A DNA stretch of 64,000 nt, taken from positions 729,702 to 793,701 of the forward strand of contig JAUYID010000009.1 in assembly GCA_030704665.1 (NCBI GenBank), in the 5' to 3' direction. The position numbers and the translations under genes are program-made. Positions 3,003 through 43,498 of the stretch are shown piece by piece. Position 1 is the stretch's first letter; every line of letters begins with the position of its first letter. The notes under the pieces are model-generated. The model ran no database searches, had not been told where the DNA came from, and saw nothing but the letters and a program-made list of their open reading frames with translations. The stretch comes from a bacterium. GTDB lineage: Bacteria; Patescibacteriota; Microgenomatia; Woykebacterales; RBG-16-39-9b.

Positions 3003-3089
3003 CTAGTGGATAAAAAAGGTCCGATAATAACTTTACTAACGTCTTTTGTTTAGCACAATTCAAGACGTTTTTTTCAAAATAGCTGCCTC

Positions 3090-3500
3090 TTGATTGGGGG
3101 TGAAAAAAACTTGGAAGCACGTATTCTTAGAGCTGGTTTGGGAGCAGCGGTCTTTGGACTTCTGGTCAGTGGCGCTCTCGGAACTTCCGGTGGTTGGTCA
3201 CCAGTTCTTTCTCTGACCAACAATGTCCTCGGAGTTTGGATCATCGCCATAGTCCTGAGTATCTTCTTTGCCTATATCTTCACTTACTGGTTTGACGCTT
3301 TTTTGCCAGGAAGTGCGGTAGTAAGGGGAGCCATCTTTGGAGCTTTAATTTGGGTTCTTCTCCTGGTCCTTGGAGGAGTCTCGAACTTTTTCAAAGAGGC
3401 TGTTTATCCAGACCCAGCCGGAGCTAGTCTTTTCCTTAGTCTAGTTCTTCACTTGGCTTGGGGCTCGGTTTTATCTCTTCTTTACCAAAGTAAAGGTTAG
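3090..3500 (+). CDS. small hypothetical membrane protein
   Basis: 136 aa. TTG start in the track. Multiple hydrophobic helices. Confidence 0.35.
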   Translation: MIGGEKNLEARILRAGLGAAVFGLLVSGALGTSGGWSPVLSLTNNVLGVWIIAIVLSIFFAYIFTYWFDAFLPGSAVVRGAIFGALIWVLLLVLGGVSNFFKEAVYPDPAGASLFLSLVLHLAWGSVLSLLYQSKG

Positions 3501-4372: not shown

Positions 4373-4479
4373 TGAGATTTTGCTTCGGGGGATTTCAGGT
4401 CAACAATCTATCACTTTTGAGTCTTTTTGTCAAAAATTTTTGAGAAATTCTAGATAAATTCACTTAAGCGTATATAATA

Positions 4480-8423: not shown

Positions 8424-9330
8424 GAGGCTAATGAACACTAAGTTTAGCCTCAGACAATTTAAGAGAAAATATGGTACGCACGAACAATGCTTGGAAGCTA
8501 TTAAGAAGCTACGTTTCGCAGATGAAATGGATTGTCCAAAATGCAAAAGGCTTTCAGTTTTCTACAAAGTTTCAGACCGAACCGCTTATGCCTGTAAGTT
8601 CTGTGGCTACCAAATTTACCCATTAGCAGGAACTATTTTTGAGAAAACTACTACGCCACTTGATATGTGGTTCTTTGCAATGTACTTAATGGTACAAACC
8701 CGTTCTGGTTGTTCTGCTAAACAACTGGAAAGAATGCTCGAAGTTACTTACAAGACTGCTTGGAGAATGTTTAAGCAGATTAGAGCCTTAATGGCTGACA
8801 ATTCAGGTGAGCCGTTAGACGGAATTATTGAAATTGACGAAACCTTTGTGGGTGGTAAAGCAAAGAACAGGGCAAGAAAGTGGATACAGGGCGTTGAGGG
8901 CGAGGAAAAAGAGGTTGTTATGGGTATGGTGCAAAGAGAGGGTAAAATCTATCTCAAGCACGTTCCAAATACTGGCAAGTACACTTTGCTTCGCCAAATC
9001 AAAGACCACGTTAGCCCTAAAGCTACCATTTACACTGACCAGTACGGCTCGTACAAACAACTTAACCGCTTGGGCTACAACCACTCTTGGGTAAACCACA
9101 AAAAGACTTTCGTTTATGGTGACGTTTACACTCAAAATATCGAGAACTTTTGGTCTCACCTAAAGCGTGGAATTACTGGCGTGTACCGAGTGGTAAGCAA
9201 GAAGTACCTGCAAAGCTACGTTGATGAGTTTGGTTTCCGTTATTCTAACAGAAATGTAGGCGGCGGAATGTTTGATCTACTTTTGGCACAGGTTGCAGAG
9301 GTTAAGGTTTTGAAGATTTCTGAGGAGTAG
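8422..9330 (+). CDS. IS1595-family (ISXO2-like) DDE transposase; the likely true start is ATG 8431
   Basis: N-terminal zinc ribbon (CPKCKR...CKFCGY) followed by the MWFFAMYLM...QLERML helix and GIIEIDETFVGGK, typical of the IS1595/ISXO2-like transposase family. Confidence 0.8.
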   Translation: MRLMNTKFSLRQFKRKYGTHEQCLEAIKKLRFADEMDCPKCKRLSVFYKVSDRTAYACKFCGYQIYPLAGTIFEKTTTPLDMWFFAMYLMVQTRSGCSAKQLERMLEVTYKTAWRMFKQIRALMADNSGEPLDGIIEIDETFVGGKAKNRARKWIQGVEGEEKEVVMGMVQREGKIYLKHVPNTGKYTLLRQIKDHVSPKATIYTDQYGSYKQLNRLGYNHSWVNHKKTFVYGDVYTQNIENFWSHLKRGITGVYRVVSKKYLQSYVDEFGFRYSNRNVGGGMFDLLLAQVAEVKVLKISEE

Positions 9331-23859: not shown

Positions 23860-24057
23860 CTATAATTCAAGTATTTCTTTGGCTTCGGCAATGTATTCTT
23901 CTGGGACAATGACGGTACGACTCAGCTCAACACCAAAAACCCCGGTCGATGAGGTTTCACTTCCAACTCGAGCCGGAATACCGGCATTTTTCAGCCTTTC
24001 AACTAGCATCAGGGCCACTTTATTGTCGAAGGCGGTTGTCACCACTCGCTCACTCAT
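23860..24057 (-). CDS. small hypothetical protein
   Basis: 65 aa. Overlaps the lysK stop by 8 nt. Confidence 0.3.
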   Translation of the reverse strand: MSERVVTTAFDNKVALMLVERLKNAGIPARVGSETSSTGVFGVELSRTVIVPEEYIAEAKEILEL

Positions 24058-25591
24058 ACTGTTTTTTTAAGGCTTTTCTAGCTTTAGATTTATCAGAAAT
24101 TATTAAGGCTGAAACTTTTGGTCCGTGATCATCTCCAATTAAAGCTTGATACGTACTTGTGAAAGCTTCTTTTGGCTGTAAATCATTTTCCTTTGCTATC
24201 TGAAAGATGCGTTTCTGCAGTTCCTCCTCAGTCCAGTCTTTATCTAAGTCTCTATCAAGATCTTTAAAGTATTTTTTCACTCGCTCACTAAAAGTGAGTT
24301 TTTCTTGCTCTTTAACCTCAATTACCCTCTGCTCTTTTTTTGCAAACCTTTCGAGCCAGATTTTGGCGTAACGCGCTCTTCTATCCAAGTCTTCTTTGTC
24401 CTCTTTTGTTAAACCTGAACCCTTAGCTTTTTCTGCTTCAGCTTCTATGTTTATATTTGGTTGGCGCAGCCAATTGGCCAAAGTAATAAACCGTGGAATG
24501 AAAACCTTGACCGGTTTCCCAATATGGCCGGCTTCAAAAGTCCGTCCCAAGTCAGACTCTGGATCTGCAAAATAAGCTTCCCGGGCTCGATCGTACTCGT
24601 CAAACAAATTGGGAATAGTATCCGAATGAGTGGGATCAAAATCAATCGCCACTCGAGGGTGATAGCGGGCGTTTAAAAATCTGAGTACGCTAGCAGGTAA
24701 CACTTCCGCAACAGCAGCTGCGGAAGCTCCTAAACCTTTGGAAGAACTCATTTTTTTACCCCCAAAAAGAAAGTGCTCGTAGGCAAGATCTTCCGGCGGT
24801 TCAATTTTGAAAATCTCCCGAGCAATATGATTGCCGATATCACGCGAGCCGCCTTTGGAGGTGTGGTCTTTGCCTGAGCCCTCGAAGCCAACCTGATTAA
24901 CCAACCATTTACTCGGCCACTCCACTTTCCAAGGCATTTTGCCTTTACCGCCAAAGGGACTCACTTTCCCCTCATACCCACAGCCTACCGCCCACTCAAC
25001 CATGTCTTTTTCACAAACGTAACTGACTTGCTTCCCGTCCCAAAAGTAAACTCTCGTCGTGCCGATCCTGCCGCAATTTTCGCACACCGGCTGAAAAGGA
25101 AACCAATCTTTTTTCTTTTCAGAACCAGAAACCCGCTGGTAAATTTCCTGAATTTCAGGGGCCTTATCAAGAACAATTTTTATTGCTTGATCGAGCCTTC
25201 CCGAGGCGTACATATCCTTGTAAGACCAAACGATTTCTGGTTCGGCACCAAGAGAATTGAAAACTTTCAAAAAGTCTTTGGCGTAGTAGTCTGCGTAACT
25301 GGTGTAACCTCTTTGCGGAGAAGGGACGTCTTTGAGAGGAAAACCCATGTATTTTTCATATTTTTCTTTATCCAAGTAAATCGGAAGACCGTCCATTGGA
25401 TCAAAGTCATCAAAGTGATAAGTATAGCGAGCCTTTTTGCCTAGTTTTAGTAGGGATTTGTAAACAAAATCGTGGATGAGAACTCCCCGCAAAGAACCAA
25501 CGTGAACTTTCCCAGAGGGGGTTTTTGCATCGTTAACCAGAATCGGTTCTTTTCTTTTTGTTTCTTTGGCAACAATGTCAGCCCAAAACAT
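24050..25591 (-). CDS. lysK: class I lysyl-tRNA synthetase
   Basis: TPSGKVHVGSLRG (HIGH-type) and KMSSSKG (KMSKS). 513 aa. Confidence 0.7.
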   Translation of the reverse strand: MFWADIVAKETKRKEPILVNDAKTPSGKVHVGSLRGVLIHDFVYKSLLKLGKKARYTYHFDDFDPMDGLPIYLDKEKYEKYMGFPLKDVPSPQRGYTSYADYYAKDFLKVFNSLGAEPEIVWSYKDMYASGRLDQAIKIVLDKAPEIQEIYQRVSGSEKKKDWFPFQPVCENCGRIGTTRVYFWDGKQVSYVCEKDMVEWAVGCGYEGKVSPFGGKGKMPWKVEWPSKWLVNQVGFEGSGKDHTSKGGSRDIGNHIAREIFKIEPPEDLAYEHFLFGGKKMSSSKGLGASAAAVAEVLPASVLRFLNARYHPRVAIDFDPTHSDTIPNLFDEYDRAREAYFADPESDLGRTFEAGHIGKPVKVFIPRFITLANWLRQPNINIEAEAEKAKGSGLTKEDKEDLDRRARYAKIWLERFAKKEQRVIEVKEQEKLTFSERVKKYFKDLDRDLDKDWTEEELQKRIFQIAKENDLQPKEAFTSTYQALIGDDHGPKVSALIISDKSKARKALKKQYE

Positions 25592-26920: not shown

Positions 26921-27418
26921 CTAGTTTATCGCTTTGATGCGGTAATGTAAAGTAGCATACGGCGTAGTGACATCGACTTCGTCACCGACCTTGAGGCCAA
27001 TCAGAGCTTTACCAACTGGAGATTCATGGGAAATCCGACCGCTCTCTGGCTCAGCTTCCATCGTTCCAACGATGTGATAAGTATCTCGATCACCGTCTAT
27101 CTCAACTGTCACACTTGAACCAATCTGGACCATCCCAAGATGGGTTTCTTCGATGACTTCACTTCTCTTGAGAATAGATTCAATTTCGAGAATTCTTCCT
27201 TCAGTAAAAGACTGTTCATCACGAGCAGTGTCATACTCTGAGTTTTCGCTGATATCCCCATATTCCCTTGCCTTGGCGATTCTTTCGGTAACTTCTTTTC
27301 TTTTGACATTTTTCAAATGATCAAGCTCTTCTTTGAGCTTGGCTAAGCCTTCGCCGGTGAGATAAACTTTTTCAGCTAAGTCTTTGTTAATTATTTCCTC
27401 TGAAGTAGAATTTTTCAT
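26921..27418 (-). CDS. greA: transcription elongation factor GreA
   Basis: N-terminal coiled coil with the conserved acidic tip (YGDISENSEYD), plus a C-terminal FKBP-like domain. Confidence 0.85.
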   Translation of the reverse strand: MKNSTSEEIINKDLAEKVYLTGEGLAKLKEELDHLKNVKRKEVTERIAKAREYGDISENSEYDTARDEQSFTEGRILEIESILKRSEVIEETHLGMVQIGSSVTVEIDGDRDTYHIVGTMEAEPESGRISHESPVGKALIGLKVGDEVDVTTPYATLHYRIKAIN

Positions 27419-32944: not shown

Positions 32945-34066
32945 ATGGCTGCTTCTGCCCAAAAACCTGCTGGCAATCAAGATCACCCCTTCGCTTCCAA
33001 AAGCGAGCTCGAGGGCAATTTCCTTGCGGAAAACAAGGTTCTTCTAGACAAAGTCGAGTCTTCCAAAATCCCGGCAACTCTAAAGCTAGACCTAGCTGAC
33101 AGGCTAAAACGGCTCAACCGCTCCATGCAGTTTGGTAGCTATCAAGCTGACTATGAATCAACCTCAAAATACATAAACTGGCTGCTTGCCTTACCTTGGG
33201 AAAACCGAAGTGAAGACAAGTTGGATTTAACTTTAGCGAAGCAAACTCTCGACAAAAGCCACTACGGGCTTGAAAAAATCAAGGAACGAATCATTGAGTA
33301 TTTAGCAGTTTTAAAACTACAAAGCGAAGCGGAAAACTCCGGGGTCATCAAAATTTCCCGCTCCCCGGTTCTCTGCTTTGTCGGTTTGCCAGGAACTGGG
33401 AAGACCTCCTTTGCCTTAGCGATCGCGCAAGCTTTGGGCCGAGAATTTGTTCGTATCCCGATGGGAGGAATGAGCAACGCCCTTGTTTTAAGGGGACAAC
33501 CACGGGGTTATCCTGAGGCAGAGCCGGGGATGGTCGTCAAGAGCCTTCGTCGCGCCGGAACCAAAAATCCCGTTGTCCTTCTCGATGAAATTGATTCAAC
33601 CGCCGAGGGAGCTGCTTCTGATATCATGGGTGTTCTTCTCGAGCTTCTCGATCCAGAGCAAAACTCTGCTTTTACTGATTACTATATCGACTTCCCTTTT
33701 GATCTCTCTGAGGTCCTTTTTCTTTGCTCGGCCAACAAATTGGGTAATATTACAAGCGCGGTCATGGACCGCATGGAAGTAATTTTAATGCCCCGCTACA
33801 CTGATGATGACAAAATTCATATTGCCCGCGACTATCTTTTCCCACGGGAACTCAGTGTTGTTGGTTTGAAACCGGAAACAGTCAGCTTTGATGAAGCGGT
33901 CTGGCCTCTGGTAATCAAACCCTTTGGCTATGAAATTGATGTTCGCAATATGGAAAGGACCATCAACGGAATTTTGAGAAAAGTAGCGCGAAAATATGTT
34001 GATGGCAGTCTCCAACAGGTCACAATTAATTCCTCAAACCTCAAAGATTTTCTTCCTGAGTGGTAA
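32945..34066 (+). CDS. Lon-like AAA+ ATPase lacking the C-terminal protease domain
   Basis: Lon A-domain motifs LCFVGLPGTGKTS...VVLLDEIDS...LLELLDPEQNSAFTDYYID...MDRMEVI. The ORF ends at 373 aa with no S-K dyad domain. Confidence 0.7.
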   Translation: MAASAQKPAGNQDHPFASKSELEGNFLAENKVLLDKVESSKIPATLKLDLADRLKRLNRSMQFGSYQADYESTSKYINWLLALPWENRSEDKLDLTLAKQTLDKSHYGLEKIKERIIEYLAVLKLQSEAENSGVIKISRSPVLCFVGLPGTGKTSFALAIAQALGREFVRIPMGGMSNALVLRGQPRGYPEAEPGMVVKSLRRAGTKNPVVLLDEIDSTAEGAASDIMGVLLELLDPEQNSAFTDYYIDFPFDLSEVLFLCSANKLGNITSAVMDRMEVILMPRYTDDDKIHIARDYLFPRELSVVGLKPETVSFDEAVWPLVIKPFGYEIDVRNMERTINGILRKVARKYVDGSLQQVTINSSNLKDFLPEW

Positions 34067-34139: not shown

Positions 34140-34724
34140 TTACGGACTTACTGTGTTTGTTCCACCACTATTGGCAACACCAACTGAAGTGGTCGCTCCA
34201 CCAGTCTCAACTGTACCACTACCTGTGTTCTTGTTCGCCTTGTTCTTGCCAGTTTTGGCTTTGACTTTGGCTTTGTTTTTCACCTTGAGATTGTTGCTCT
34301 GCCCTACCGTGTTAGTTTTTGTACTGCTGGCAGTTGTGGTGTTGACGGAACCTGCTCCAGTAGTCTCATTTGTGGCCGCATTGTTTACGTCACACTCGCA
34401 CGTGCAACCGTTGCTAGCTGTATTTGAACTTCCGGAATTGACGATCGAAACAGTTGCGCTGGCATCCCCAGTCGTCACCGAACCATCACCAGTGTTCTGG
34501 CTGGCGCTATTACCACCAGTGTTAGCGTTAACACTAATATCGTTGTTGATATCGACAACGTTGCTCTGCCCAATGACAGAAGAACAAACGCTTGTAGCGA
34601 TTGCAGTGTTGACTGATCCAGCACCGGTGTTTGAGTTGCTAGCGGTGTTGTCAGCCAAGGCGGGCACTACTGCTAGAGCAACTCCGGCTAAACCCAAGCC
34701 AGGAATTGTGAAAAGTCTTTTCAT
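34140..34724 (-). CDS. secreted N/T/G/S-rich repeat protein
   Basis: Signal peptide MKRLFTIPGLGLAGVALAVVPALADNTASNSNTG, with loose similarity to the SipW-cognate signal of the 40535 gene. Repeated N-T-G-x-G-S-V motifs. Confidence 0.5.
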   Translation of the reverse strand: MKRLFTIPGLGLAGVALAVVPALADNTASNSNTGAGSVNTAIATSVCSSVIGQSNVVDINNDISVNANTGGNSASQNTGDGSVTTGDASATVSIVNSGSSNTASNGCTCECDVNNAATNETTGAGSVNTTTASSTKTNTVGQSNNLKVKNKAKVKAKTGKNKANKNTGSGTVETGGATTSVGVANSGGTNTVSP

Positions 34725-34983
34725 TTATTTCTCACCTCCTTTCATCTTCTTAAACTGTAAATTGACAACAAAAAACCAACCCCCAAAAAACGGAAGTTGG
34801 TCGCATCTTTTTTTGCTTTTTGGCTGAGACAGTTTTCATGGCAGTATCCAAAAGCTTTCAGTACAAGCACTTTTGCTCTGAGCCTCCGTTGGCGGTCGGC
34901 TCACGTTTTCATTTTATTTGAAGGCAGAAAAAAGAGGCAGAAAGAACGGGTTTTATTTTAGAGAGAGGCCACTGTAGTGTCAA
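34725..34983 (-). promoter_or_regulatory. promoter (TTGACA-17-TAAAAT) plus a ~220-nt conserved 5' leader with attenuator hairpin (copy A)
   Basis: -35 at 34978-34983 and -10 at 34955-34960 (minus strand). Leader blocks AGCCGACCGCCAA, UGCCAUGA and ACCAAC-loop-GUUGGU+U6, plus 19 nt spanning RBS to start, are shared with 41075-41326. Confidence 0.45.
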
Positions 34984-35007: not shown

Positions 35008-35868
35008 CTAAAGTGCCCTGCGAGCTTCGCTCTTAGGATTTGGGGGGGTTTGCTTTTCTTCAAATTCCTCTTTGCATTCTTTTGAACAGAAATAATAGGT
35101 CTTGATAGAAGTAACTAGTTGTGGGGTGGTCGCTGTCTTTTCCACTCTGGTGCCACAGTTTGGATCGTGCTCGAGTATTTCGATTTCTTTGAAACGTCCG
35201 TCTTCGAGCCAAAGGATGCGGTCAGCAATTTCTTTGAGCCTTTCGTCATGGCTAACCACCACGACGGTTTTGCCCATATTTTTGGCCACACGAGACAGAA
35301 GCCTCATCACCTCTTTTCCTTTTTTAGAATCAAGGTTGGCGGTTGGTTCGTCAGCAAGGATGAGCTTGGGATCGTTGGTCAGGGCTCGAGCGATAGAAAC
35401 TCTCTGCTGCTCGCCTCCAGAAAGTTTTCTGGGACGAAAGTTTCTTCTCTGAGTCAGGTCAAAAGTTTCCAAAAGACCGTTTACTTTTTGTCTAGCTAGT
35501 CTCTTTGGAACACGGGCCAGGAGCAAAGGCACAAGAACATTTTCAAAAACAGTCAGGTTTTCTAGCAAATTAAAGGATTGAAAAATAAAACCGATTTTAG
35601 CTTGACGGATTTTTGTTAGTGTCCGATCGTCAGCATCAGCAACTTCTTCTCCATCAATTTTGACTGATCCTTGGCTAGGTCTCAGCATCGCTCCAGCAAT
35701 AGTAATAAAAGTAGTTTTACCTGATCCGGAGGGGCCCATGATCAGAACAACTTCACCTGCCCAAGCTTCAAAATTGATGTCATCTACTGCTCGAACTTGG
35801 ATCGTGCCGAAGCCAAAAATTTTGGTTACATTTTTCAGTTCTAAAGTTGGTTTTTCTGGCAACCTCAT
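35008..35868 (-). CDS. ABC transporter ATP-binding protein (MacB/LolD-like) with C-terminal YHS metal-binding domain
   Basis: Walker [18 protein letters not shown] and ILADEPT. The C-terminal DPNCGTRVE...TYYFCSKECKEEF is YHS-type. Confidence 0.8.
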   Translation of the reverse strand: MRLPEKPTLELKNVTKIFGFGTIQVRAVDDINFEAWAGEVVLIMGPSGSGKTTFITIAGAMLRPSQGSVKIDGEEVADADDRTLTKIRQAKIGFIFQSFNLLENLTVFENVLVPLLLARVPKRLARQKVNGLLETFDLTQRRNFRPRKLSGGEQQRVSIARALTNDPKLILADEPTANLDSKKGKEVMRLLSRVAKNMGKTVVVVSHDERLKEIADRILWLEDGRFKEIEILEHDPNCGTRVEKTATTPQLVTSIKTYYFCSKECKEEFEEKQTPPNPKSEARRAL

Positions 35869-36968
35869 GATCGAAACACCTCAGCTGGGTCAATATGAAT
35901 TATCCGCCGTACTGGTATGTAAGAAGCAAAAATACTCATTGTATTGGCCAAAACAAAAACATTGACCAAATCTACCCCTCTCGTAGTCGTGACAAAAACA
36001 GGAACGAAGTTCGGAATAATCCAAAGTAGCAAGAAAGTTAGACCAACCCCGACGAAATAACCAATTATTCCTGAAACGAAGGACTGCTGAAAGATAATCT
36101 GATAAATTTGCAGGTTTGACCCACCAATTGCCTTCAAAACGCCAAATTCCCGCGCTTTTTCGATAGTAGCTGTGTAAATAGTTAGCCCAATCACGGCGGT
36201 TCCCACTAAAACACTGATCAGAACTAAGACTGCAATGATTGGAACAAAAACTTCGTCAATTAGGCGTCGGTTTTTATCGACGAATTCTTCCCTATCCAAA
36301 GCATCCACACCACCAATTTGGTTGATCTCGTCCCTTACTTCGTCGAGTTTGCCAGAGTCAGTCTTTACCAAGTAAAAGTTGGTAAAGCCTTCTGTGCCAA
36401 AAAGTTTAATCGCTTCTTTTTGGTCGATAAAGGAGAATTGAAAAAGAAACATGTTGGCCCCGTCAGCAATTCCCACTACTTTGAGGCTCGTCCCAAAGAT
36501 TTCGACGAATTCTCCTATTTCCAATTTTTTGTTTTTGGCTAGCACTTTATCTACCACTATTTCTCCTTCGTCCGGTACTTTCTTCCCTGAGAGCATTTTC
36601 TTTGGTCCAGAAATTGGCTTTTCTGGATCAAAACCAACGATATAGGTGTTGACGTCTTTATTTTTCAGGGAAAAACTGACTGGCTTACCCACAAATTTAT
36701 TTACTTGGGACACTCCGGGAAGTGTCTTTATTTTTAGCCCAACTGAGTCTGGAATGAGTGAAGCACTACTGGTGATATCAGCCGAGCCTGATTGAGTAAC
36801 CCAAAGGTCAGTATCAATACCCCGGATATACTCGGTTGCCTTAACACGCCACCCTTGATAAAGGGAGAGAATGATCAAAATAAGCATGACAGAAAAAGCG
36901 ACACCACCTACAGAGATTGCGAAACGGGTTTTTTCTGCAAAAAGATTTCTTAGGGCAATTGAAACCAT
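35865..36968 (-). CDS. ABC transporter permease, FtsX/MacB family
   Basis: 367 aa. TM1, then a large extracytoplasmic domain, then 3 TM helices. Overlaps the ATPase gene start. Confidence 0.75.
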   Translation of the reverse strand: MVSIALRNLFAEKTRFAISVGGVAFSVMLILIILSLYQGWRVKATEYIRGIDTDLWVTQSGSADITSSASLIPDSVGLKIKTLPGVSQVNKFVGKPVSFSLKNKDVNTYIVGFDPEKPISGPKKMLSGKKVPDEGEIVVDKVLAKNKKLEIGEFVEIFGTSLKVVGIADGANMFLFQFSFIDQKEAIKLFGTEGFTNFYLVKTDSGKLDEVRDEINQIGGVDALDREEFVDKNRRLIDEVFVPIIAVLVLISVLVGTAVIGLTIYTATIEKAREFGVLKAIGGSNLQIYQIIFQQSFVSGIIGYFVGVGLTFLLLWIIPNFVPVFVTTTRGVDLVNVFVLANTMSIFASYIPVRRIIHIDPAEVFRS

Positions 36969-37034
36969 AGTTTGAAAGGTCAGTACAAAACTTCTTTTAT
37001 TTTGAACTAAAGGAAAGGTTTCTTCAAGTAGAGA

Positions 37035-39245
37035 CTAGCTAGGGGTGCCTAAACTTAGGTTGCCTTCGTGATCAAGTTTTTTCCACTCTACCGGAGCACC
37101 CTTTAGCAAGGCCCAAAGCGCCTTAAAAAGAGAGATATAAAGAATCGGCTGATAATAAAGTCTTTGCAAGGGCATGAGAATCAAAACCCAGGCAGACTCT
37201 CTCTCAAAAGCAAAGGCAACAATACCAAGAATCAACCTCGTCAAAAGATAGAGACTGAGGTAAATAAGAACGAGCTTGGCGGAAATGAAAAAGAAAGCAA
37301 AGATAGCAAAAAGATCCATCAAGGGCGATAAAAGCATGATCGGGATCTGGACAAAAATTGTAAAGGGCAGAACGAGCCAACCCAAAAAGCCATGGCGGCG
37401 TCTAAAAATTAGGTTGCTGTGAGCCGAAAAGGTCTGAAAGACCCCAAAGGTCCAACGAAACCTTTGGCGGATGAGATCTGAGATTTTGGTCGGCGCCTCG
37501 GTATAGGAAACTGCTTCTTTGTCATAAACTACTCTGAAACCGGCCCTTAAAAGCCGTATCGTCAACTCTGCATCTTCTGTCAGGGTCCTGCCTGAATAAC
37601 CCCCGATTTTTTTCACTACACTACTTCTCCACGCTCCTAGAGCCCCTGGAACCACCAAAATCGAGTTCAGCGCGCTGTAGCCGTTTCGTTCTAGGTTCAG
37701 GTTCATGGTGTACTCAATTGCCTGCAACTTACCGAGGATAGTTTCTCGGTTGCCGACTTTTACATTGCCTGCCACAGCGCCAACTTTGGGATCAGCAAAA
37801 AATTTTACTAAGCTCCCAAGGGCATTTTTGTCGAGATGAGTATCAGCATCAAGAGCGACAAAAACACTTGATCGAACAAACCTCAAGCCATAGTTTAAAG
37901 CAGAAAATTTTCCTCCGTTTTCTTTGGCAAGAACCTTAACTCGGCTGTCTTTCTCAAACTTTTTGGCCAGCCTATTGGTATTGTCCGTGGATCCATCATC
38001 AATGATGAAAAGCTTGAATTTTTTGTAGTTCGAGGCTAGAACCGAATGGATTGTAGCAGCAATCGCTTTCTCTTCGTTGTAAGCCGGTACCAAGACGCTA
38101 ATTGAAGGTCGAAAATTTCCCTTTGCCAAAGTCTTTTTGAAACGAAGCGAGCGGTATGATTCTAAGTTCGCCAAAATGATCAGGAACAAACTGTAAGTCA
38201 GAGTAAAACCGAGGCCAATCAAAAAGACCGGGTCCAGAAGTCTCGGAGACGCCTTGAAGAATTTATACCCTACAACCAAAAGATTACTCGAAACCGACTC
38301 TCTCAATGAGACCCGCGGCATGGTAGCTTTTCCGGACAAAGCAGCCAAAGTTTGAAAACTATAGCCTTGGGATTTGTAATACTTGATGATCTCAGGAAGA
38401 GCAAGAACGGTGTTGCGCCGATCACCTCCGGCATCGTGCAAAAGCAAAACTACTGGGCCTTCAGTACTGGTAGTACTGTTTTGGACGATTTTCTTGATGT
38501 TCCTCTCCTGCCAGTCATTAGAGTCAAGAGTCGGGGTTGATACCAAGTAACCTTTGTCCAAGGCAAAAGTGGTAAGGATCAAACTATCCATCGAAATTTC
38601 GTTCTCTTGACCCCAATATGGGTTGCGAAACAATTTGGGACTAATACCTGTCGCCTGCTCGATCAAATTTTGATTGAAATCAATCTCAAAATTAACTCTA
38701 TTCAAGCGCTCCATAGGGTTTTGACCAATAGCAACGTGAGAGAAAGTGTGATTTCCCAACTCAAATCCGTTTTCAACAATTTTTTTAACCAATTCCGGAT
38801 ATTTCAAAACCTGACTCCCAACAACAAAAAATGTTGCGGAAACATTTTCTTTCTTGAGTATTTCAAGAATTTTTGGAGTGTAGTTCGGGTCTGGACCATC
38901 GTCAAATGACAAAACTACTGTTTTTTCTTTGTTCGATTTTTCCCTGTTGATTGAGTAGGTATTTTTTTCTTGGTCCGCGTTTATTTGAATAATTGTCCCA
39001 GAACCGTGGACCGAAATTTCCCCCGGTGTTTTTTTACTAATTTTGTCTATCACATCTCGGTTTGTTTCCCCTTGGATTTTCGTTAGTTTATTTCTAGCTC
39101 CTCCAAAAAACTCCCAGAGTACCAAACCGGCCACAAGAGCAAGAGCAAAACCCAAGACCAAAAAAGCCAAGCAAAAAGTCTTCCAGCGTCGACCGGACTC
39201 GTCAAGAAAGACAAATTTTTGATTTGACAATACACTTTTTGCCAT
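37035..39245 (-). CDS. bifunctional polysaccharide deacetylase (NodB/CE4) and family-2 processive glycosyltransferase (PgaC/IcaA-like)
   Basis: CE4 motifs VVLSFDDGPDP...GNHTFSHV. GT2 region LVPAYNEE...IIDDGSTDNT and Q(R)xRW (QRFRWTFG). Multiple TM helices at both ends. Confidence 0.8.
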   Translation of the reverse strand: MAKSVLSNQKFVFLDESGRRWKTFCLAFLVLGFALALVAGLVLWEFFGGARNKLTKIQGETNRDVIDKISKKTPGEISVHGSGTIIQINADQEKNTYSINREKSNKEKTVVLSFDDGPDPNYTPKILEILKKENVSATFFVVGSQVLKYPELVKKIVENGFELGNHTFSHVAIGQNPMERLNRVNFEIDFNQNLIEQATGISPKLFRNPYWGQENEISMDSLILTTFALDKGYLVSTPTLDSNDWQERNIKKIVQNSTTSTEGPVVLLLHDAGGDRRNTVLALPEIIKYYKSQGYSFQTLAALSGKATMPRVSLRESVSSNLLVVGYKFFKASPRLLDPVFLIGLGFTLTYSLFLIILANLESYRSLRFKKTLAKGNFRPSISVLVPAYNEEKAIAATIHSVLASNYKKFKLFIIDDGSTDNTNRLAKKFEKDSRVKVLAKENGGKFSALNYGLRFVRSSVFVALDADTHLDKNALGSLVKFFADPKVGAVAGNVKVGNRETILGKLQAIEYTMNLNLERNGYSALNSILVVPGALGAWRSSVVKKIGGYSGRTLTEDAELTIRLLRAGFRVVYDKEAVSYTEAPTKISDLIRQRFRWTFGVFQTFSAHSNLIFRRRHGFLGWLVLPFTIFVQIPIMLLSPLMDLFAIFAFFFISAKLVLIYLSLYLLTRLILGIVAFAFERESAWVLILMPLQRLYYQPILYISLFKALWALLKGAPVEWKKLDHEGNLSLGTPS

Positions 39246-39361
39246 AAAAACAACTATTTAACTGGTAACTAGGCAGAAATGATCTCTTCTCCGTAGGAGG
39301 CAAAGTCATTATAAACCTAATTAAACTGAAATTCTACTGGAAAAATAGTTTGATTTTCAGC

Positions 39362-40507
39362 TCAGAACACCTCACAATTTTGGTTGTTTTCTCCGTTCAA
39401 GCAGGTGTCTGTTTGTGCTCCACCATCGTTTTTATCTGAACCATTCCCTGCATCAAGAAAATCCTCCCCAGAACCTCCGGAAAGCCCGTCGCTACCTGGT
39501 CCACCAAACAATTTATCGTTGCCACTGCTGCCATTTAGACTATCGGAGCCTTCGGCACCAAACAATTCATCCGCACCAGAGCCCGCTTGCAGCGAATCAC
39601 TGTCCTGACCACCAAGGAGAATGTCCTGACCGGGCCCACCTTTCAACTTATCACCGCCGTCTCCACCAACAAGGCAATCGTTACCACCTTTACCCTCAAT
39701 AAGATCTCCCCCACCAAAACCAAAAATCAAGTCGTTGCCGGCAGTTCCGATCAGCCTATCGGAGGCCTCAGTTCCCAAAATAGGCTCTCCGGAAAACTCA
39801 ATATCACTACATTCTAAAGGAGCACTCGAAATTTCACCAGTTGAAAGTCGATTACTCTCTAAAATTACACTACTTTTGAAGAGACTAAAGGCAGGAACAG
39901 CAAAGAGCAAAAAAATAAGTACAAGAGCCGGCGCAGTTAAAACTCTGGTATTTAGTTTCTCCTTTTTCTTTTTTTTCATTCTCTTCATTTCCTCGGCAAT
40001 AACCAAAAATTCATGGAGAATAACAAAACTAGCTGGAATGATTACAAGAATAAATAGCCCGGGGAAGCTGCCAAGAAAGGCAGCCAACACTCCCAAAAGG
40101 GGAGCTGAAAAAACGACTTTTCCAAAAATATTTCTGTCTCGGATCAGTGTCGAATCTGGGCCTTGATTAGCATCTCCCTTGGTTTGATAATAAGTGATTC
40201 CATCTTTCTCAACTATCTTGTTAATTCTGTGAGTAATTAAACTCTGCGTTCCTGCCGACTGAAAGCTGACGACTTCCCCTGTTTCATAGTTTTTGTTTTT
40301 ATCACTGAAAATACTTTTTTCTGGAAAAACAACCAAAAGTGAATTTATCGGAAGGTTTGGACTCATACTTCCTGTTTTTACCACCAACAATCGAACCCAG
40401 TTTAAAGCAGAGAGGGTAAGTACCAGGGTGATGGTAAAAATAAAAACTATGAAAACTGAGTTAAAGGCTTTTACAATCATAAACTCTTTACCCGGCTGGT
40501 TCCGCAA
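39362..40507 (-). CDS. SipW-type (ER/archaeal-type) signal peptidase I fused to C-terminal RTX repeats
   Basis: Three S26 boxes: nucleophile VKTGSMSPNLPINSLLVV, His box LITHRI, and TKGDANQGPD. Three TM helices. About 10 GGxGxDxLx nonapeptides (GTAGNDLIFGFGGGDLIEGKGGNDCLVGGDGGDKL...). Confidence 0.7.
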   Translation of the reverse strand: MRNQPGKEFMIVKAFNSVFIVFIFTITLVLTLSALNWVRLLVVKTGSMSPNLPINSLLVVFPEKSIFSDKNKNYETGEVVSFQSAGTQSLITHRINKIVEKDGITYYQTKGDANQGPDSTLIRDRNIFGKVVFSAPLLGVLAAFLGSFPGLFILVIIPASFVILHEFLVIAEEMKRMKKKKKEKLNTRVLTAPALVLIFLLFAVPAFSLFKSSVILESNRLSTGEISSAPLECSDIEFSGEPILGTEASDRLIGTAGNDLIFGFGGGDLIEGKGGNDCLVGGDGGDKLKGGPGQDILLGGQDSDSLQAGSGADELFGAEGSDSLNGSSGNDKLFGGPGSDGLSGGSGEDFLDAGNGSDKNDGGAQTDTCLNGENNQNCEVF

Positions 40508-40534: not shown

Positions 40535-41074
40535 TTAAGGTACGACTTGGGTTCCAGTAAAGACTACATCATACTGAATACTCTTGTTGGAGGCACTGTT
40601 TGTCGCTGAACCACTGAGGGTTTGTTTGATGTTGCATCCGACTTCTGCGTCAGGAGCAATAGTTACAATAGTTGTCCCAGGAAAAGGGGCGTCCAAAGTC
40701 CCACTCACTACCCCGCTACCACAATCTAGTGCAACTGTTACCAGACTTGGATCAAGGGCACCCGAGTCGATAGAGGTTGCGGCAGTGATATCAAGACTAA
40801 TCGCACTGTCACTGTTGTTTTTCAGACAAAATGGTAATACCTCTTCCTGCCCAGGGGCCAAATCGTCTGAATCAATCCCCGGAGTTGAGCTTGCAAAACT
40901 ACCACACGCTGAACCAGTCCATTCCGCTATTTGCAGATCGGCATCACCAGTACTTAAGGTGTTGTTGGATAGAGTCGCAGTGTCAGTAAAAACAGCTAAA
41001 GTGATTCCCACAACCGCAGCTAGGGTTGCGGCAATGGTGAGAAAACCAAAAGCTACTCTTTTGTTTATTGCCAT
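40535..41074 (-). CDS. TasA/camelysin-like protein with SipW-cognate signal peptide
   Basis: N-terminus MAINKRVAFGFLTIAATLAAVVGITLAVFTDTATLSNNTLSTG matches the SipW-cognate signal class (A-x-F-T/N-D motif). 179 aa. Confidence 0.6.
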   Translation of the reverse strand: MAINKRVAFGFLTIAATLAAVVGITLAVFTDTATLSNNTLSTGDADLQIAEWTGSACGSFASSTPGIDSDDLAPGQEEVLPFCLKNNSDSAISLDITAATSIDSGALDPSLVTVALDCGSGVVSGTLDAPFPGTTIVTIAPDAEVGCNIKQTLSGSATNSASNKSIQYDVVFTGTQVVP

Positions 41075-41326
41075 TTATTTCTCACCTCCTCTCCCCTTCA
41101 ACCAATTTCTTTTTGAAAATTGGCATAAAAAAACCAACTGTCCTGTTTCGGCTCGTTGGTTACTATTTTTTTGTAAGCAGATATTTTGGACAGTCATGGC
41201 AGCAAACTTTTGGCAGGATTTTTAATATAGGCCTCTCCTTGGCGGTCGGCTGTACAGTTTTTACTTAACGATCAGGAAATTTTGAATGCGAAGTGAGTAT
41301 AAACTATCGCAAAGTGGAGGTGTCAA
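41075..41326 (-). promoter_or_regulatory. promoter (TTGACA-17-TTTATA) plus conserved 5' leader with attenuator hairpin (copy B)
   Basis: -35 at 41321-41326 and -10 at 41298-41303 (minus strand). GGCGGTCGGCT lies exactly 177 nt from the start codon in both copies. Confidence 0.45.
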
Positions 41327-41382: not shown

Positions 41383-42465
41383 CTAGGTGCACGTCTTACC
41401 GTGGGCAGCTGTTACAAAACCTTGGTCAGTGGAGTTTATGTAGCCATCAAGGTTCAAGTCATATCTCTTTCTGTAATAATTCCCGGAGGAGCTTTTAGTT
41501 CCCTTGTAGTCTGCTCCAATGTATTTAGCCAAAAGTAACTGATCAGCAGAGGTTACTTTTTTGTCACTATTGAAGTCTATTGGCCAAGCGCTTGATCCAC
41601 AGGCTGCTGTCGGACTGGTCCCCATATGTGACTCCGCCGCATCTCCAAAGCTATCTCCATCACTATCTTTTTTGAGAGTCCTGGCTTCTTTAGTTACTGA
41701 TGTATTGTTATTACTTGTATCGTCCACACCTACTCTAATTTGATACTTCGAACTATCCCGTAAATTCGACCACGTTTGAGTTGTCTCTAATGAAAGGGGC
41801 GAACAGATCCCCGAACTTCCTCCTCCGGTTGGACCATTAGGAGGATTGTAGTCCTCATAATACTTTGGATCAACAAGGTCAGAAGAAGAGGTACAAACAT
41901 AATAACCAGAAATCCCAACGTTATCTGTCGCCGACCATTTCCAAGTAATCGAGTTGGTAGTGATATTTGTGGCGTTTACCGTCAGAACAGGTGGGGTAGT
42001 ATCCTTTGAAAGAACCGTAAAAGCCTGGGTTGAAGCTGTGGTACATCCCCCAGTTACACAAGAAACGGTCCAATAGTAGGTGGTGCCAACTGTCAATTGG
42101 CTTGGTGGGGTTCCGTAGCTTGCACTACTCCAACCACCAAAGTTTGTCGAGTTGACTCCGCTGCTACCATACACATCCTTGTACCAAGATCCTGAGTAAA
42201 AATTCCCATTATAGGCCCGGAGATAAACTCGATATTTTGTGGTGTAGCAGTAACAGTTCCAACTAAAGGTTGGCGTAGTACTGTAGGTACTGTAGGCTGG
42301 AGTTAAGCTTGAAGGTTTTCCAGTTGCGGCCTGAGGAGTAAGTGAGCGCACACCATAAACTGCAAAAACAGTAATCGGTATTGAAATGAGAATAATGAGA
42401 GAGGCAAGAATTCCTAGGTTTATGCTTTTGAGAGTAAATTTGTGATCTTCTTGTTCATCGTTCAT
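41383..42465 (-). CDS. secreted protein with fibronectin-III-like region and C-terminal dockerin-like repeats
   Basis: N-terminal TM/signal. Dockerin-type D-x-N-x-D-G motifs (DLNLDGYINSTD; DFNSDKKVTSADQLLL). Confidence 0.55.
   Translation of the reverse strand: MNDEQEDHKFTLKSINLGILASLIILISIPITVFAVYGVRSLTPQAATGKPSSLTPAYSTYSTTPTFSWNCYCYTTKYRVYLRAYNGNFYSGSWYKDVYGSSGVNSTNFGGWSSASYGTPPSQLTVGTTYYWTVSCVTGGCTTASTQAFTVLSKDTTPPVLTVNATNITTNSITWKWSATDNVGISGYYVCTSSSDLVDPKYYEDYNPPNGPTGGGSSGICSPLSLETTQTWSNLRDSSKYQIRVGVDDTSNNNTSVTKEARTLKKDSDGDSFGDAAESHMGTSPTAACGSSAWPIDFNSDKKVTSADQLLLAKYIGADYKGTKSSSGNYYRKRYDLNLDGYINSTDQGFVTAAHGKTCT
42242..42374. repeat. 133-bp exact direct repeat, copy 1 (inside the 41383 gene)
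   Basis: Identical to 43257-43389. Flanking sequence continues at lower identity. Confidence 0.8.
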
Positions 42466-42472
42466 TTTAAAT

Positions 42473-43498
42473 TCACTGGCATCTCTGTCCTACATACTTC
42501 GCAAGAGCTTCCGAATCTTTCGAGTTCAAAACATTATCACCTGGGTAAAATTCATATCTTCTTATATTCGCTGGTGGGCTAGCTATTGCCTTGTATAACA
42601 AAAACTGGTCTGCTGAGGAAACAACTTTGTCCCCATTCAAGTCTGGTGGCCAAGCAGAAGCTCCACCACATTTTAAGTTAGGATTGGTACCCATCCAGAT
42701 TTCAACCCCGTTTAACCACCCATCACCATCACTGTCTATATCATCTGTCCTAATACCTCCTGACCTGCCACCCACATTTCCTGCTGCATCATAAGCTCTG
42801 ATATTGTAGTAATAAAGTGTATTCGGAGTAAGGTTGTTGTAGGTATATGACGTTATACCTGACCCCAAAGGAATAATCCCTGTGGAAGTCTCAGTAGTAA
42901 CTCCTAAAGAGATGTCTTGGCGAACAACTCCAACATTATCATAAGTACTCCAGTAAAAAGTAAGTGAAGTTGGCTTGGTCAGGGTTGTACCCATAGAAAC
43001 TTCAGGTGGCGAGGTGTCTTTCGTAAGGACGGTGAATGCCTGAGTTGCTGAAGTCTTACACCCACCAGTCACACAACTAACCGCCCAATAATAAGTTTTT
43101 CCAGCGGTGAGAGAAGCTGGGGCCGATTTGTAATTGTTGTTGATCCAGCCGCCAAAGATAGTAGAATTTTTTCCGCTCGTCCCAAAAACTTCTTTGTACC
43201 AAGACCCAGCATAGAAATTGCCATCTCCTTCACGAAGATAAACTCTATATTTGGTCGTGTAGCAGTAACAGTTCCAACTAAAGGTTGGCGTAGTACTGTA
43301 GGTACTGTAGGCTGGAGTTAAGCTTGAAGGTTTTCCAGTTGCGGCCTGAGGAGTAAGTGAGCGCACACCATAAACTGCAAAAACAGTAACGGGAATGGCG
43401 GCAAAGATAACCAAAACACCAACCAAAGCCAGCTTCGTTGATCGAGTCTGGTGCTCAAATCTTTCCAACAAACGGTTGATTGTTTTGGCAGGATTCAT
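42473..43498 (-). CDS. paralog of the 41383 gene (FN3-like plus dockerin-like)
   Basis: N-terminal approx 150 aa are near-identical to the neighbour (VFAVYGVRSLTPQAATGKPSSLTPAYSTYSTTPTFSWNCYCYTTKY). DLNGDKVVSSADQFLL dockerin motif. Confidence 0.55.
   Translation of the reverse strand: MNPAKTINRLLERFEHQTRSTKLALVGVLVIFAAIPVTVFAVYGVRSLTPQAATGKPSSLTPAYSTYSTTPTFSWNCYCYTTKYRVYLREGDGNFYAGSWYKEVFGTSGKNSTIFGGWINNNYKSAPASLTAGKTYYWAVSCVTGGCKTSATQAFTVLTKDTSPPEVSMGTTLTKPTSLTFYWSTYDNVGVVRQDISLGVTTETSTGIIPLGSGITSYTYNNLTPNTLYYYNIRAYDAAGNVGGRSGGIRTDDIDSDGDGWLNGVEIWMGTNPNLKCGGASAWPPDLNGDKVVSSADQFLLYKAIASPPANIRRYEFYPGDNVLNSKDSEALAKYVGQRCQ
43257..43389. repeat. 133-bp exact direct repeat, copy 2 (inside the 42473 gene)
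   Basis: Identical to 42242-42374. Confidence 0.8.

Follow-up and report, generated by a model that had tools for sequence, protein, structure and literature searches.

In Bacillus, the tapA-sipW-tasA operon is controlled by SinR and AbrB, which act on DNA at the promoter, and in the Firmicutes biofilm and fibre genes are often placed under c-di-GMP riboswitches. Control within the leader RNA has been described for licS and bglP, where a RAT hairpin competes with an overlapping terminator (PMC5393181, PMC3369936), and for the substrates of ANTAR proteins (AmiR/NasR/EutV), which contain two hairpins (P1 and P2) with the critical loop residues A1 and G4 and of which the distal stem overlaps the proximal stem of the terminator, a protein being needed for stabilization (PMC3369936). 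For LoaP, a NusG paralogue acting on the dfn operon, a small leader hairpin combined with an intrinsic terminator, and control of long operons for extracellular products, have been reported (PMC12691694). A literature search on TasA or riboswitches in CPR/Patescibacteria yielded nothing relevant, and no paper was found on the leader element described here. To our knowledge, gene regulation in Patescibacteria/CPR is almost unstudied, with hardly any regulatory RNA characterized in this group.

The window (i.e., the whole stretch of 64,000 nt that was analysed), which comes from an uncultured, Woykebacteria-like bacterium of the CPR, contains two related leaders. Copy B (41075-41326, minus strand) comprises a promoter, an untranslated leader of ~215 nt, a hairpin with U-run and a perfect RBS, followed by a TasA/camelysin-like gene. 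Its paralogue is the leader that precedes the neighbouring N/T/G-rich gene (copy A). Resemblance to the RAT/LicT system (BglG/SacY/LicT, CAT-PRD proteins) is found in the related leaders L070, L072 and L006, where a small, imperfectly paired hairpin whose internal loop is asymmetric likewise overlaps the terminator, although the window copies do not have this overlap. The RAT hairpin, however, is ~29 nt long with two asymmetric internal loops, whereas the element studied here has 19-20 nt and one internal loop; the RAT cargo consists of PTS sugar genes instead of secreted fibre/matrix proteins, and a CAT-PRD protein, the cognate partner of RAT, was not seen among the ~40 window ORFs scanned against Pfam. 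The ANTAR substrates also share a small hairpin overlapping the terminator, but the present element is a single hairpin, closed by a C(C/A)AA tetraloop, and the window ORFs that were scanned contained no ANTAR protein. As in the LoaP leader, the window copies have a hairpin followed by a distant terminator, and copy B heads a 6-kb operon. However, there is no sequence similarity and no KOW/NusG match in the scanned window ORFs, copy A heads one short gene for which processive antitermination would be without obvious use, and LoaP has been reported from Bacillota, Actinomycetota and Spirochaetota and not from CPR. With the Bacillus operon the locus shares a TasA-like fibre protein, SipW and exopolysaccharide genes under one regulatory input, but control in Bacillus is exerted at promoter DNA, whereas what is conserved in the present leaders is part of the transcript and specific to one strand. 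The fibre genes controlled by c-di-GMP-I/II riboswitches are a similar cargo, but no c-di-GMP or other riboswitch model matched here.

The likeliest reading (probability roughly 0.58), based on comparison of the leader sequences and their predicted folds, is that copies A and B are cis-acting, factor-dependent transcription-attenuation leaders of fibre/matrix genes. The leader RNA is probably an undescribed on/off element by which the secreted fibre/matrix genes are co-regulated.

Layout of the two leaders

All features described lie on the minus strand. Those of the two leaders are as follows.

41321-41326, minus strand: -35 hexamer TTGACA of copy B, read directly and invariant in an alignment of six homologous leaders
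41296-41303, minus strand: -10 region TTTATACT of copy B, either TTTATA with 17-nt spacing or TATACT with 19-nt spacing
41231-41251, minus strand: conserved block AGCCGACCGCCAAGGAGAGGC of copy B, predicted hairpin GCC-GA-CC-loop-GG-AGA-GGC
41198-41217, minus strand: two CUGCC motifs (CCUGCC 41217-41212, CUGCC 41202-41198), then AUGA, within the CTGCCATGA..ACTGTC block common with copy A
41188-41194, minus strand: ACUGUCC, predicted to pair with GGACAGU 41143-41137 and to form the 5' side of an antiterminator helix
41127-41161, minus strand: terminator-like hairpin AACCAAC-(16-nt loop)-GUUGGUU of copy B with a U-run of seven, -11.3 kcal/mol (RNAfold)
41102-41123, minus strand: extra hairpin CCAAUUU-UCAAAAAG-AAAUUGG, a predicted fold between terminator and RBS, in copy B only
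41072-41089, minus strand: extended Shine-Dalgarno GGAGGUGA (41089-41082) and ATG (41074-41072) of copy B
34725-34983, minus strand: copy A leader before the N/T/G-rich protein gene, with promoter, CUGCC motifs, block, terminator with U-run, and SD
34983-34955, minus strand: copy A promoter TTGACA-17-TAAAAT (consensus scanner)
34940-34936, 34927-34923 and 34844-34840, minus strand: CUGCC motifs of copy A
34901-34882, minus strand: block AGCCGACCGCCAACGGAGGC of copy A
34802-34774, minus strand: terminator-like hairpin of copy A, same arms, with U-run, -17.9 kcal/mol
34739-34732, minus strand: SD of copy A

As expected of an attenuator leader, a consensus -35 and a plausible -10 lie upstream of copy B and the leader reads in the direction of the gene; transcription would start near 41290. 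The preliminary description gave the promoter as TTGACA-17-TTTATA. Both hexamers are indeed present (41326-41321 and 41303-41298), but TATACT (41301-41296), 19 nt from TTGACA, makes a better -10. TTGACA-N19-TATACT is conserved in the homologous leaders L003, L006, L007 and L067. The -10 assignment is ambiguous. The copy B promoter is absent from the list of the consensus scanner; that of copy A is present there. The copy A and copy B genes are the only ones in the window to have an SD of this strength before the ATG.

That copy B is a second leader with the same blocks as copy A was borne out by the occurrence of GGCGGTCGGCT (plus strand) at 41241-41251 and 34891-34901. On the coding strand the exact word common to both is the 13-mer AGCCGACCGCCAA (41251-41239; 34901-34889), of which the 64 kb contain only two exact copies; with up to two mismatches there are five matches against 0.74 expected, a number reached in none of 100 shuffles. 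The shared block AGCCGACCGCCAA..GAGGC reaches GAGGC in both copies and measures 21 nt in copy B and 20 nt in copy A. Further common blocks are CTGCCATGA..ACTGTC, the terminator arms ACCAAC/GTTGGTTTTTT, TG.CAATTT and the RBS region AGGAGGTGAGAAATAAATG, identical over 19 nt. The distance of 177 nt from block start to the A of the ATG, previously noted as equal in both copies, is correct (41251-41074; 34901-34724). However, the equality is probably coincidental rather than a constrained quantity, since it arises from two differences that cancel each other (from block to terminator, 90 nt in copy B vs 99 nt in copy A; from terminator to ATG, 87 nt vs 78 nt), and since L070 and L072 have corresponding distances of 101 nt and 118 nt, respectively.

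The identity blocks are interrupted by unalignable stretches with indels, and this patchiness suggests selection rather than recent copying. If the copies were alike merely through recent local duplication or gene conversion, and were non-functional remnants, this would fit their location on the same strand, 6.35 kb apart, and their common possession of genome-specific terminator arms and of the identical 19-nt RBS region. Identity, however, is confined to the blocks between the diverged stretches, and the main block is conserved in three genomes with only about 45-68% identical proteins, so that we accord this explanation next to no probability.

A conserved block with a predicted hairpin in related genomes

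The preliminary description held that an element confined to this genome would argue against an attenuator; the block in fact recurs in leaders of three other genomes, i.e., in the Woykebacteria-like leaders L070/L069 (TAGCCGACCGCAAACGGAGGC), L072 and L006. These genomes have diverged: SerS of the window and of the L070 genome are 68% identical, and the cargo proteins are ~45% identical. The predicted structure is a single, imperfect hairpin of ~20 nt with the general form GCC-GA-CCG-CNAA-CGG-A-GGC and the loops CCAA, CAAA or GCCAA, for which folding predicts a base-pair probability of ~0.6 in both window copies. A covariance model (R1) built from winA, L070 and L072, with copy B left out, matched L006 at 9095-9119 with 30.1 bits (E = 1.4e-5) in 185 kb. 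The outer pair of L006 has changed in a compensatory manner from G-C to A-U, a covariation that consists of a single pair and is not significant (reached by 132 of 500 shuffles). Copy B scores only 12.3 bits with the model owing to a 1-nt insertion, and its inner helix is shorter. According to the model search, many leaders of the same family are without the block.

Could the element be a small-molecule riboswitch, in which the hairpin, alone or with the CUGCC region, would bind a metabolite or second messenger and switch the terminator without a protein? The succession of promoter, structured element, terminator and RBS is a standard riboswitch layout, those positions of the hairpin that are left unpaired (GA, A and the CNAA loop) keep their sequence across the genomes, and the frequent c-di-GMP control of biofilm and fibre genes in the Firmicutes, mentioned above, also counts in favour. 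However, Rfam 15 at gathering threshold returned one tRNA only for the whole window and eight related loci, with nothing relevant at E <= 10; the best matches below threshold were lysM-TM7 (14.4 bits, threshold 61.5) and Phe_leader (25.5 bits, threshold 55). Aside from the block, no structured region is common to all leaders, and many leaders of the family lack the block entirely. We know of no aptamer as small as a 6-bp, 20-nt hairpin, except for those working as pairs or pseudoknots, and consider a riboswitch unlikely.

The second recurrent element, CUGCC, is the top enriched 5-mer in the 12 leaders analysed (18 observed vs 2.1 expected, z = 11), all of which are enriched in it on the sense strand; its 18 occurrences compare with 2 in the opposite sense. 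For UGCC, 32 were observed vs 9.1 expected, and 4 of its reverse complement. As a detector of leaders in the window, YUGCC clusters were unspecific, coding regions also scoring. A role of CUGCC as anti-SD was rejected, as two wobble pairs would be required.

These data also bear on the idea that the block acts as DNA, i.e., as an operator with the inverted repeat GCCnnCCG-N4-CGGnGGC to which a dimeric repressor would bind and so obstruct a promoter close by or the elongating RNA polymerase. In favour of this, the block is imperfectly palindromic, its primary sequence and not its pairing alone is conserved, and it is situated 17-115 nt downstream of consensus promoters. Yet this distance varies, from about +17 to about +115, whereas three of the five leaders keep block and terminator in a fixed relation; the sole substitution is compensatory for RNA pairing (G-C to A-U) and would alter both half-sites; and the accompanying CUGCC is strand-specific. 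An operator is, in our opinion, very unlikely.

Several other interpretations and searches were discarded. The pattern AGCCGACCGCCAAN{2,3}GAGGC gave 54 single matches in GTDB representative genomes, a collection that does not include the source genome; all were in genomes of 50-72% GC, the five contexts inspected all look like coding sequence, and we attribute the matches to chance, true relatives being missed by this exact pattern because one base differs. In IMG/VR, GCCGACCGCNAANGGAGGC matched one GC-rich phage family and one other contig only, also by chance. A K-turn does not agree with an internal loop of 2+1 nt rather than 3 nt plus tandem G.A pairs, and a mimic of the tRNA 3' end (GCCGACC-G-CCA) does not agree with L070 and L072, where CCA reads CAA. 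An RfaH ops-like GGCGGT belongs to the template strand; if the block contained an ECF- or sigma-54-type promoter, a conserved -10 at fixed distance would be missing; and a boxA-like GCUCUUCAAA occurs in L070 and L072 only.

Predicted terminators, competing folds and a possible mechanism

The attenuator proposed in the preliminary description gains comparative support from a recurring layout. The transcription start, termination, regulated read-through, and the existence and nature of a factor are inferred. A hairpin with U-run lies between promoter and RBS in both window copies and in most related leaders examined, and the order promoter, terminator, RBS is found upstream of most retrieved TasA-like and N/T/G-rich genes with enough upstream sequence. 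In most leaders examined the terminator is located 24-220 nt before the ATG, with stems that differ between lineages (e.g., ACCAAC/GTTGGT, CCACGC/GCGTGG, CCAGC/GCTGG, ACTAGC/GCTAGT, and AGGCAGCT/AGCTGCCT), and the gap between terminator and RBS is too short for a second promoter. The copy B U-run (41133-41127) includes the last two stem bases, and the terminator falls outside the scanner rules owing to its 16-nt loop.

How the hairpin relates to the terminator differs among the leaders. In L070 and L072 the 3' (A)GGC of the block is part of the terminator stem with a probability of ~1.0 (RNAfold), and in L006 the U-run immediately follows a predicted pairing of CGGAGGU with ACCUCCG; in all three, the 3' half of the hairpin is thus predicted to form the base of the intrinsic terminator, a classic antiterminator/terminator overlap. 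The window copies have the hairpin 70-80 nt upstream of the main terminator, without overlap. For the copy B transcript up to the U-run, the fold with the competing ACUGUCC/GGACAGU helix has an MFE of -25.7 kcal/mol vs -22.6 kcal/mol when formation of the terminator is imposed. Copy A has not kept this helix; its MFE fold contains both hairpin and terminator and no competitor, and no antiterminator common to both window copies was found. MAFFT and RNAalifold applied to whole leaders gave no consensus structure because the leaders are too diverged and indel-rich.

A long 5' UTR without regulation would explain part of these observations: the hairpins and the SD-like GGAGG may stabilize an abundant mRNA (STAB-SD-like), or promoter and terminator together may produce a short RNA constitutively, with a fixed fraction of read-through. 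The SD-like GGAG(G) is present inside the block in all five instances, the only perfect SD-plus-ATG combinations in the window are joined to consensus promoters so that the genes look highly expressed, and the fold of copy A contains no competing structure. Leaders with hairpin and U-run are, moreover, common in these genomes and also precede other genes (window 3000-3090; DUF4352 genes), and such an arrangement may therefore be usual for the lineage and not a specific switch. As a constitutive UTR feature, the finding would be an ordinary one. It is, however, hard to explain without competition why hairpin and terminator share bases in three relatives; the competing helix of copy B is energetically on par with the terminator, and a stabilizer needs no U-run, yet most leaders examined have one. 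On balance, an unregulated UTR seems rather unlikely.

Attenuation coupled to translation would require a leader ORF running from CUGCCAUGA through the terminator, which a trailing ribosome would melt. In each window copy the conserved CUGCCAUGA contains an AUG (41197-41195; 34839-34837), and the ORFs span the terminator: that of copy B has 40 codons and a UAA overlapping the ATG of the gene, and that of copy A has 29. Among the Rfam matches below threshold, the best for copy A is the Phe_leader mentioned above. However, the AUG has no preceding SD, an equivalent ORF is missing from L003, L006, L007, L070 and L072 (which have no AUG or a stop before the terminator), and the conserved nucleotide blocks account for the similarity of the peptides. 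There is, accordingly, little to be expected from this alternative, which we deem highly unlikely.

Under factor-dependent attenuation, a strong promoter would fire and the nascent RNA would carry CUGCC repeats and the conserved 20-nt hairpin; the intrinsic terminator, 45-60 nt before the perfect SD, would halt most transcripts unless a signal permits read-through. The hairpin would be the likeliest recognition element for a trans-acting factor, most probably an RNA-binding protein of the antiterminator type and less probably a small ligand. In L070, L072 and L006 hairpin and terminator would be mutually exclusive, because the 3' half of the one is the stem base of the other, and stabilization of the hairpin would lead to read-through, as for RAT/LicT. 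In the window copies, where the two are 70-80 nt apart, the hairpin may therefore act at a distance, like the LoaP-type leader hairpin, or via other pairings; in copy A its relief of termination is left unexplained by an MFE fold in which both structures coexist. No RNA-binding regulator (CAT/PRD, ANTAR, NusG paralogue, CsrA or Hfq) was found among the ~40 window ORFs scanned against Pfam, and GreA (26921-27418) was the sole elongation factor seen in these ORFs. The motif is nevertheless a concrete 20-nt cis element with clear mutational predictions, natural variants with the hairpin overlapping the terminator or set apart are available, and proteins co-occurring with it across genomes offer a route to the regulator.

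Downstream genes and the putative regulon

The genes downstream of the two leaders are listed below.

40535-41074, minus strand: secreted TasA/camelysin-like protein of 179 aa, encoded by the gene that opens the copy B unit
35008-40507, minus strand: rest of the putative copy B operon, four genes
39362-40507, minus strand: SipW signal peptidase fused to RTX repeats, adjoining the TasA-like gene
37035-39245, minus strand: polysaccharide deacetylase and GT2 fusion
35865-36968, minus strand: FtsX/MacB permease
35008-35868, minus strand: ABC ATPase with YHS tail
34140-34724, minus strand: N/T/G-rich secreted two-repeat protein, 194 aa, cargo of copy A, with its own terminator (34108-34087)

The TasA-like protein matches Peptidase_M73 (PF12389) with E = 3e-4 and 21.0 bits, below the gathering score of 22.5, and the SipW-type signal peptide TIGR04088 with 17.8 bits (cut-off 19); PF12389 is matched by 7 of 14 members of the TasA-like family (best E = 2.9e-6). 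A profile search of the family against PDB sequences gave no match. The closest PDB match of the AF2 model (pLDDT 73.7) is 7ueg, a TasA-superfamily archaeal bundling pilin, and is weak (E = 1e-3, TM 0.39). The AlphaFold2 model of the N/T/G-rich protein (pLDDT 45) is unusable.

The earlier proposal that the TasA-like/SipW operon and the N/T/G-rich gene form a single regulon is strengthened by the same pairing in other lineages. The N/T/G-rich gene of L071 carries a TasA leader of the L001/L065 type, L068 has paralogous leaders on its TasA-like and N/T/G-rich genes, and in L006 and L008 the N/T/G-rich gene follows TasA-SipW. Three further lineages thus have one lineage-specific leader type on both gene families or have the genes physically linked. 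In L070 the operon consists of three N/T/G-rich paralogues. The motif would thereby mark a regulon of secreted fibre and matrix genes, and should the downstream proteins assemble into TasA-like fibres, surface attachment, a central part of the life of these organisms, would be governed by the switch.

More tentatively, and as a possibility that we think more likely wrong than right, hairpin and CUGCC may represent the RNA side of an antitermination system specific to CPR, based on a new regulator or a minimal ligand sensor and with DUF2292 as candidate partner. Such a system would switch on TasA-like fibres, N/T/G-rich proteins, SipW and a PNAG-like polysaccharide synthase, an extracellular programme plausibly tied to host or surface attachment of these ultrasmall bacteria. 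In L070, L072 and L006, a small DUF2292 protein is encoded immediately upstream of the leader that bears the block.

Two leaders of common layout

The region before the TasA-like gene (copy B) was read over 41326-41072 on the minus strand, like the genes here; the leader itself makes up ca. 215 nt of it. The same parts follow in identical order in copy A (34983-34722), the leader of the gene for the N/T/G-rich protein.

Features of the copy B and copy A leaders
41326-41321 (-): copy B promoter, -35 TTGACA
41303-41296 (-): copy B, -10 region TTTATACT, with TTTATA (spacing 17 nt) or, as the better hexamer, TATACT (spacing 19 nt)
41251-41231 (-): copy B, conserved block AGCCGACCGCCAAGGAGAGGC
41217-41198 (-): copy B, two CUGCC motifs
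41161-41127 (-): copy B, hairpin AACCAAC-(16 nt)-GUUGGUU, then seven U
41123-41102 (-): copy B, small additional hairpin
41089-41082 (-): copy B, extended Shine-Dalgarno (SD) sequence GGAGGUGA
41074 (-): ATG of the gene after copy B
copy A (-): promoter TTGACA-17-TAAAAT
34901-34882 (-): copy A, conserved block AGCCGACCGCCAACGGAGGC
copy A (-): three CUGCC motifs
34802-34774 (-): copy A, 12-bp terminator

The preliminary description reported 41075-41326 as a second leader sharing the blocks of copy A, and this is confirmed by the common part order and by the 13-mer AGCCGACCGCCAA, which occurs exactly twice in the 64 kb (five matches with up to two mismatches, against 0.74 expected); a 19-nt ribosome-binding stretch is likewise identical in both copies. 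The copies are identical in these blocks only, the intervening stretches being unalignable and containing indels, and this patchiness speaks against a duplication without function, which is exceedingly improbable. The block was also described as lying 177 nt from the start codon in both copies; this distance is correct, but the equality arises because two 9-nt differences compensate (block to terminator, 90 nt in copy B vs 99 nt in copy A; terminator to ATG, 87 vs 78 nt), and with 101 and 118 nt at the related loci L070 and L072 the spacing is not kept in other genomes, so we treat it as coincidental. The proposed promoter TTGACA-17-TTTATA is present in sequence and spacing, although TATACT is the better hexamer and TTGACA-N19-TATACT is common to copy B and four retrieved loci (L003, L006, L007, and L067). 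The heptamer GTTCTTT, which fits the Bacillus SinR half-site consensus GTTCTYT, occurs once, where transcription of copy A is predicted to start (34941-34947, -), and is absent from copy B; it is probably there by chance.

The block and its terminator in other genomes

The SerS of the window genome is nearest to that of Candidatus Woykebacteria (CPR/Microgenomates; 58-66% identity), and the TasA-like protein has only 13 relatives in a database of 5.8 billion clusters. In the loci of these and of the N/T/G-rich protein relatives, most genes are preceded by a consensus promoter, a leader, a hairpin with U-run and a perfect SD, in this order. The -35 is invariant among the homologous leaders compared, and terminator stem sequences vary between lineages. 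This recurrence of a hairpin and U-run between promoter and SD supports, in outline and from sequence, the attenuator layout put forward earlier.

Exact-pattern scans failed to detect the block in the relatives. It is nevertheless present as TAGCCGACCGCAAACGGAGGC in L070/L069 (OZ246414.1) and as CGCCGACCGCAAACGGAGGC in L072, and a covariance model built from copy A, L070, and L072 matched L006 at 9095-9119 (ACCGACCGCAAACGGAGGU; 30.1 bits, E = 1.4e-5, 185 kb searched). The preliminary description had made its case depend on conservation beyond this genome, and these loci provide it. In L006 the outer G-C pair is replaced by A-U, the sole covariation observed, which is not statistically significant alone. 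SerS of the L070 genome is only 68% identical to that of the window genome, and since the leaders are unalignable outside the block, the conservation of these 20 nt points to selection on their sequence. Control by leader-peptide coupling is highly improbable.

In all three relatives (L006, L070, and L072) the 3′ half of the block is predicted to form the 5′ base of an intrinsic terminator (GGAGGCAGCU...AGCUGCCUUUU in L070 and L072; CGGAGGUAAGC...ACCUCCG, then UUUUU, in L006), and RNAfold places these bases in the terminator with a probability of ~1.0; for the window copies it gives the block hairpin a probability of ~0.6. Such an overlap is the geometry of protein-stabilised antiterminators (PMC5393181, PMC3369936). 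The block may work as antiterminator hairpins of the RAT or LoaP type do, although it fails the defining size and two internal loops of RAT and lacks the two hairpins and the loop residues A1 and G4 of ANTAR. The leaders match no family in Rfam 15, and a direct riboswitch is unlikely. Full-text literature searches retrieved no account, for CPR, of TasA-type genes or of riboswitch or terminator leaders; the element is best filed within the known terminator/antiterminator leader RNAs.

In copies A and B, 70-80 nt separate the block from the strong terminator downstream of it. For copy B folded up to the U-run, the favoured structure contains a 7-bp ACUGUCC/GGACAGU helix incompatible with the terminator (-25.7 kcal/mol vs -22.6 kcal/mol with the terminator enforced), and ACUGUC belongs to the blocks common to both copies. 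The best fold of copy A contains block hairpin and terminator without a competitor (-49.3 kcal/mol), but CGGAGGCUCAG...CUGAAAGCUUUUGG, directly after the block, can form a hairpin (-12.9 kcal/mol) that competes with that of the block (-11.2 kcal/mol) and is the positional homologue of the L070 terminator. We consider the leaders to be factor-dependent attenuators, with putative regulated termination (probability ca. 0.58); that they are instead constitutive, stabilising untranslated regions or short RNAs is rather unlikely. As attenuators, they would be acted upon by a putative factor, and the block hairpin would influence the distal terminator at a distance, for which the LoaP leader hairpin is the nearest precedent (PMC12691694). 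A scan of ~40 window ORFs detected no gene for a CAT/PRD, ANTAR, NusG-paralogue, CsrA, or Hfq protein. The leaders represent a concrete, previously undescribed candidate regulatory RNA in a poorly understood phylum, of an already familiar class and with putative activity.

Directly upstream of the block-bearing leader, all three other genomes carry genes for a DUF4352 protein (~195 aa) and a small DUF2292/YezD-like protein (66-72 aa) with the motif ..DYGS(I/V)EIYIESGRVVQITER.. (L070 5762-6579; L072 2571-3379; L006 8033-8860). By tblastn, the 64-kb window has no homologue. The DUF2292 protein is a candidate partner of the block.

The CUGCC motif

Among 12 leaders (2.2 kb in total), UGCC leads the 4-mers in enrichment (32 observed vs 9.1 expected; reverse complement, four) and CUGCC the 5-mers (18 vs 2.1, z = 11), the latter exceeding even SD words. 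This strand bias argues for a role at the RNA level; a DNA operator is very unlikely. Five leaders (L007, L006, L003, L001, and L065) hold one (U)UGCCC within a hairpin loop, whose stem shows two compensatory changes (UUCUC/GAGAA vs UUUCC/GGAAA). Alone, CUGCC is too unspecific to detect leaders. The leaders evolve through insertion of CUGCC-bearing modules, as seen in the L006 TasA1 leader (4370-4620), where CUCUGCCC is duplicated with ~75 nt and two extra hairpins between the copies, and in L072, which has ~100 nt with three CUGCC motifs more than L070.

Genes behind the leaders

The copy B unit starts with the TasA/camelysin-like protein (179 aa), a label that is reasonable but soft: its Pfam and TIGRFAM scores fall slightly below the cut-offs, PF12389 is matched by 7 of 14 relatives, and its AlphaFold model (pLDDT 73.7) is nearest to the TasA-superfamily bundling pilin 7ueg, albeit weakly (E = 1e-3, TM 0.39), and to FimA-type pilins. 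The unit further encodes a SipW-type signal peptidase-RTX repeat fusion, a polysaccharide-deacetylase/GT2 fusion, a MacB/FtsX permease, and an ABC ATPase. Copy A follows directly and heads the secreted, two-repeat N/T/G-rich protein (194 aa), which matched no protein family model searched.

The putative regulon proposed earlier finds support in outline. In L070 and L072 the first gene behind the block leader is an N/T/G-rich paralogue, followed by two further ones; the L071 N/T/G-rich gene has the leader type of the TasA-like gene in L001 and L065; L068 carries paralogous leaders on both gene types at most 2 kb apart; and in L006 and L008 the N/T/G-rich gene lies directly behind TasA-SipW. The two families are therefore coupled repeatedly and independently of the window. 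A further leader at window 3000-3100 (+; promoter-like TTGACT..GATAAT, hairpin AACGTCTT..AAGACG + T7, CTGCC, ribosome-binding site GGGGGTGA) precedes a 136-aa membrane protein (ORF 3090-3500), so the hairpin-plus-U-run layout is not confined to the two matrix genes.

The N/T/G-rich family (34140-34724, -; relatives P0014-P0053) comprises secreted proteins of ~200 and ~275 aa with two internal repeats (..ANTGGNxAxxNTGxGxVxTGxA..) and a CxC motif between them, without a match to Pfam or NCBIfam models; AF2 predicts an all-beta protein at a pLDDT of only 45. Given the recurrent linkage of this family to TasA/SipW genes, the protein could be a novel component of fibre or matrix. The signal peptidase (39362-40507, -) is extended at its C terminus by ~150 aa of calcium-binding RTX repeats (HemolysinCabind, E = 2.9e-20), an unusual fusion also found in relatives from L003, L004, and L006. 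The deacetylase-GT2 fusion (37035-39245, -; 736 aa) resembles PgaB and PgaC in a single protein, and the ABC ATPase (35008-35868, -) carries a metal-binding YHS/TRASH tail at its C terminus. Two tandem genes immediately upstream of copy B (41383-42465 and 42473-43498, -), without a leader of this type, encode secreted paralogues with fn3 and dockerin/TSP3-like parts; over a stretch of 253 nt the two are 86% identical (repeat family D1). Elsewhere, the window encodes an archaeal-type class I lysyl-tRNA synthetase (24050-25591, -; TIGR00467) and a 373-aa Lon-like AAA+ protein (32945-34066, +) with no detected protease domain.
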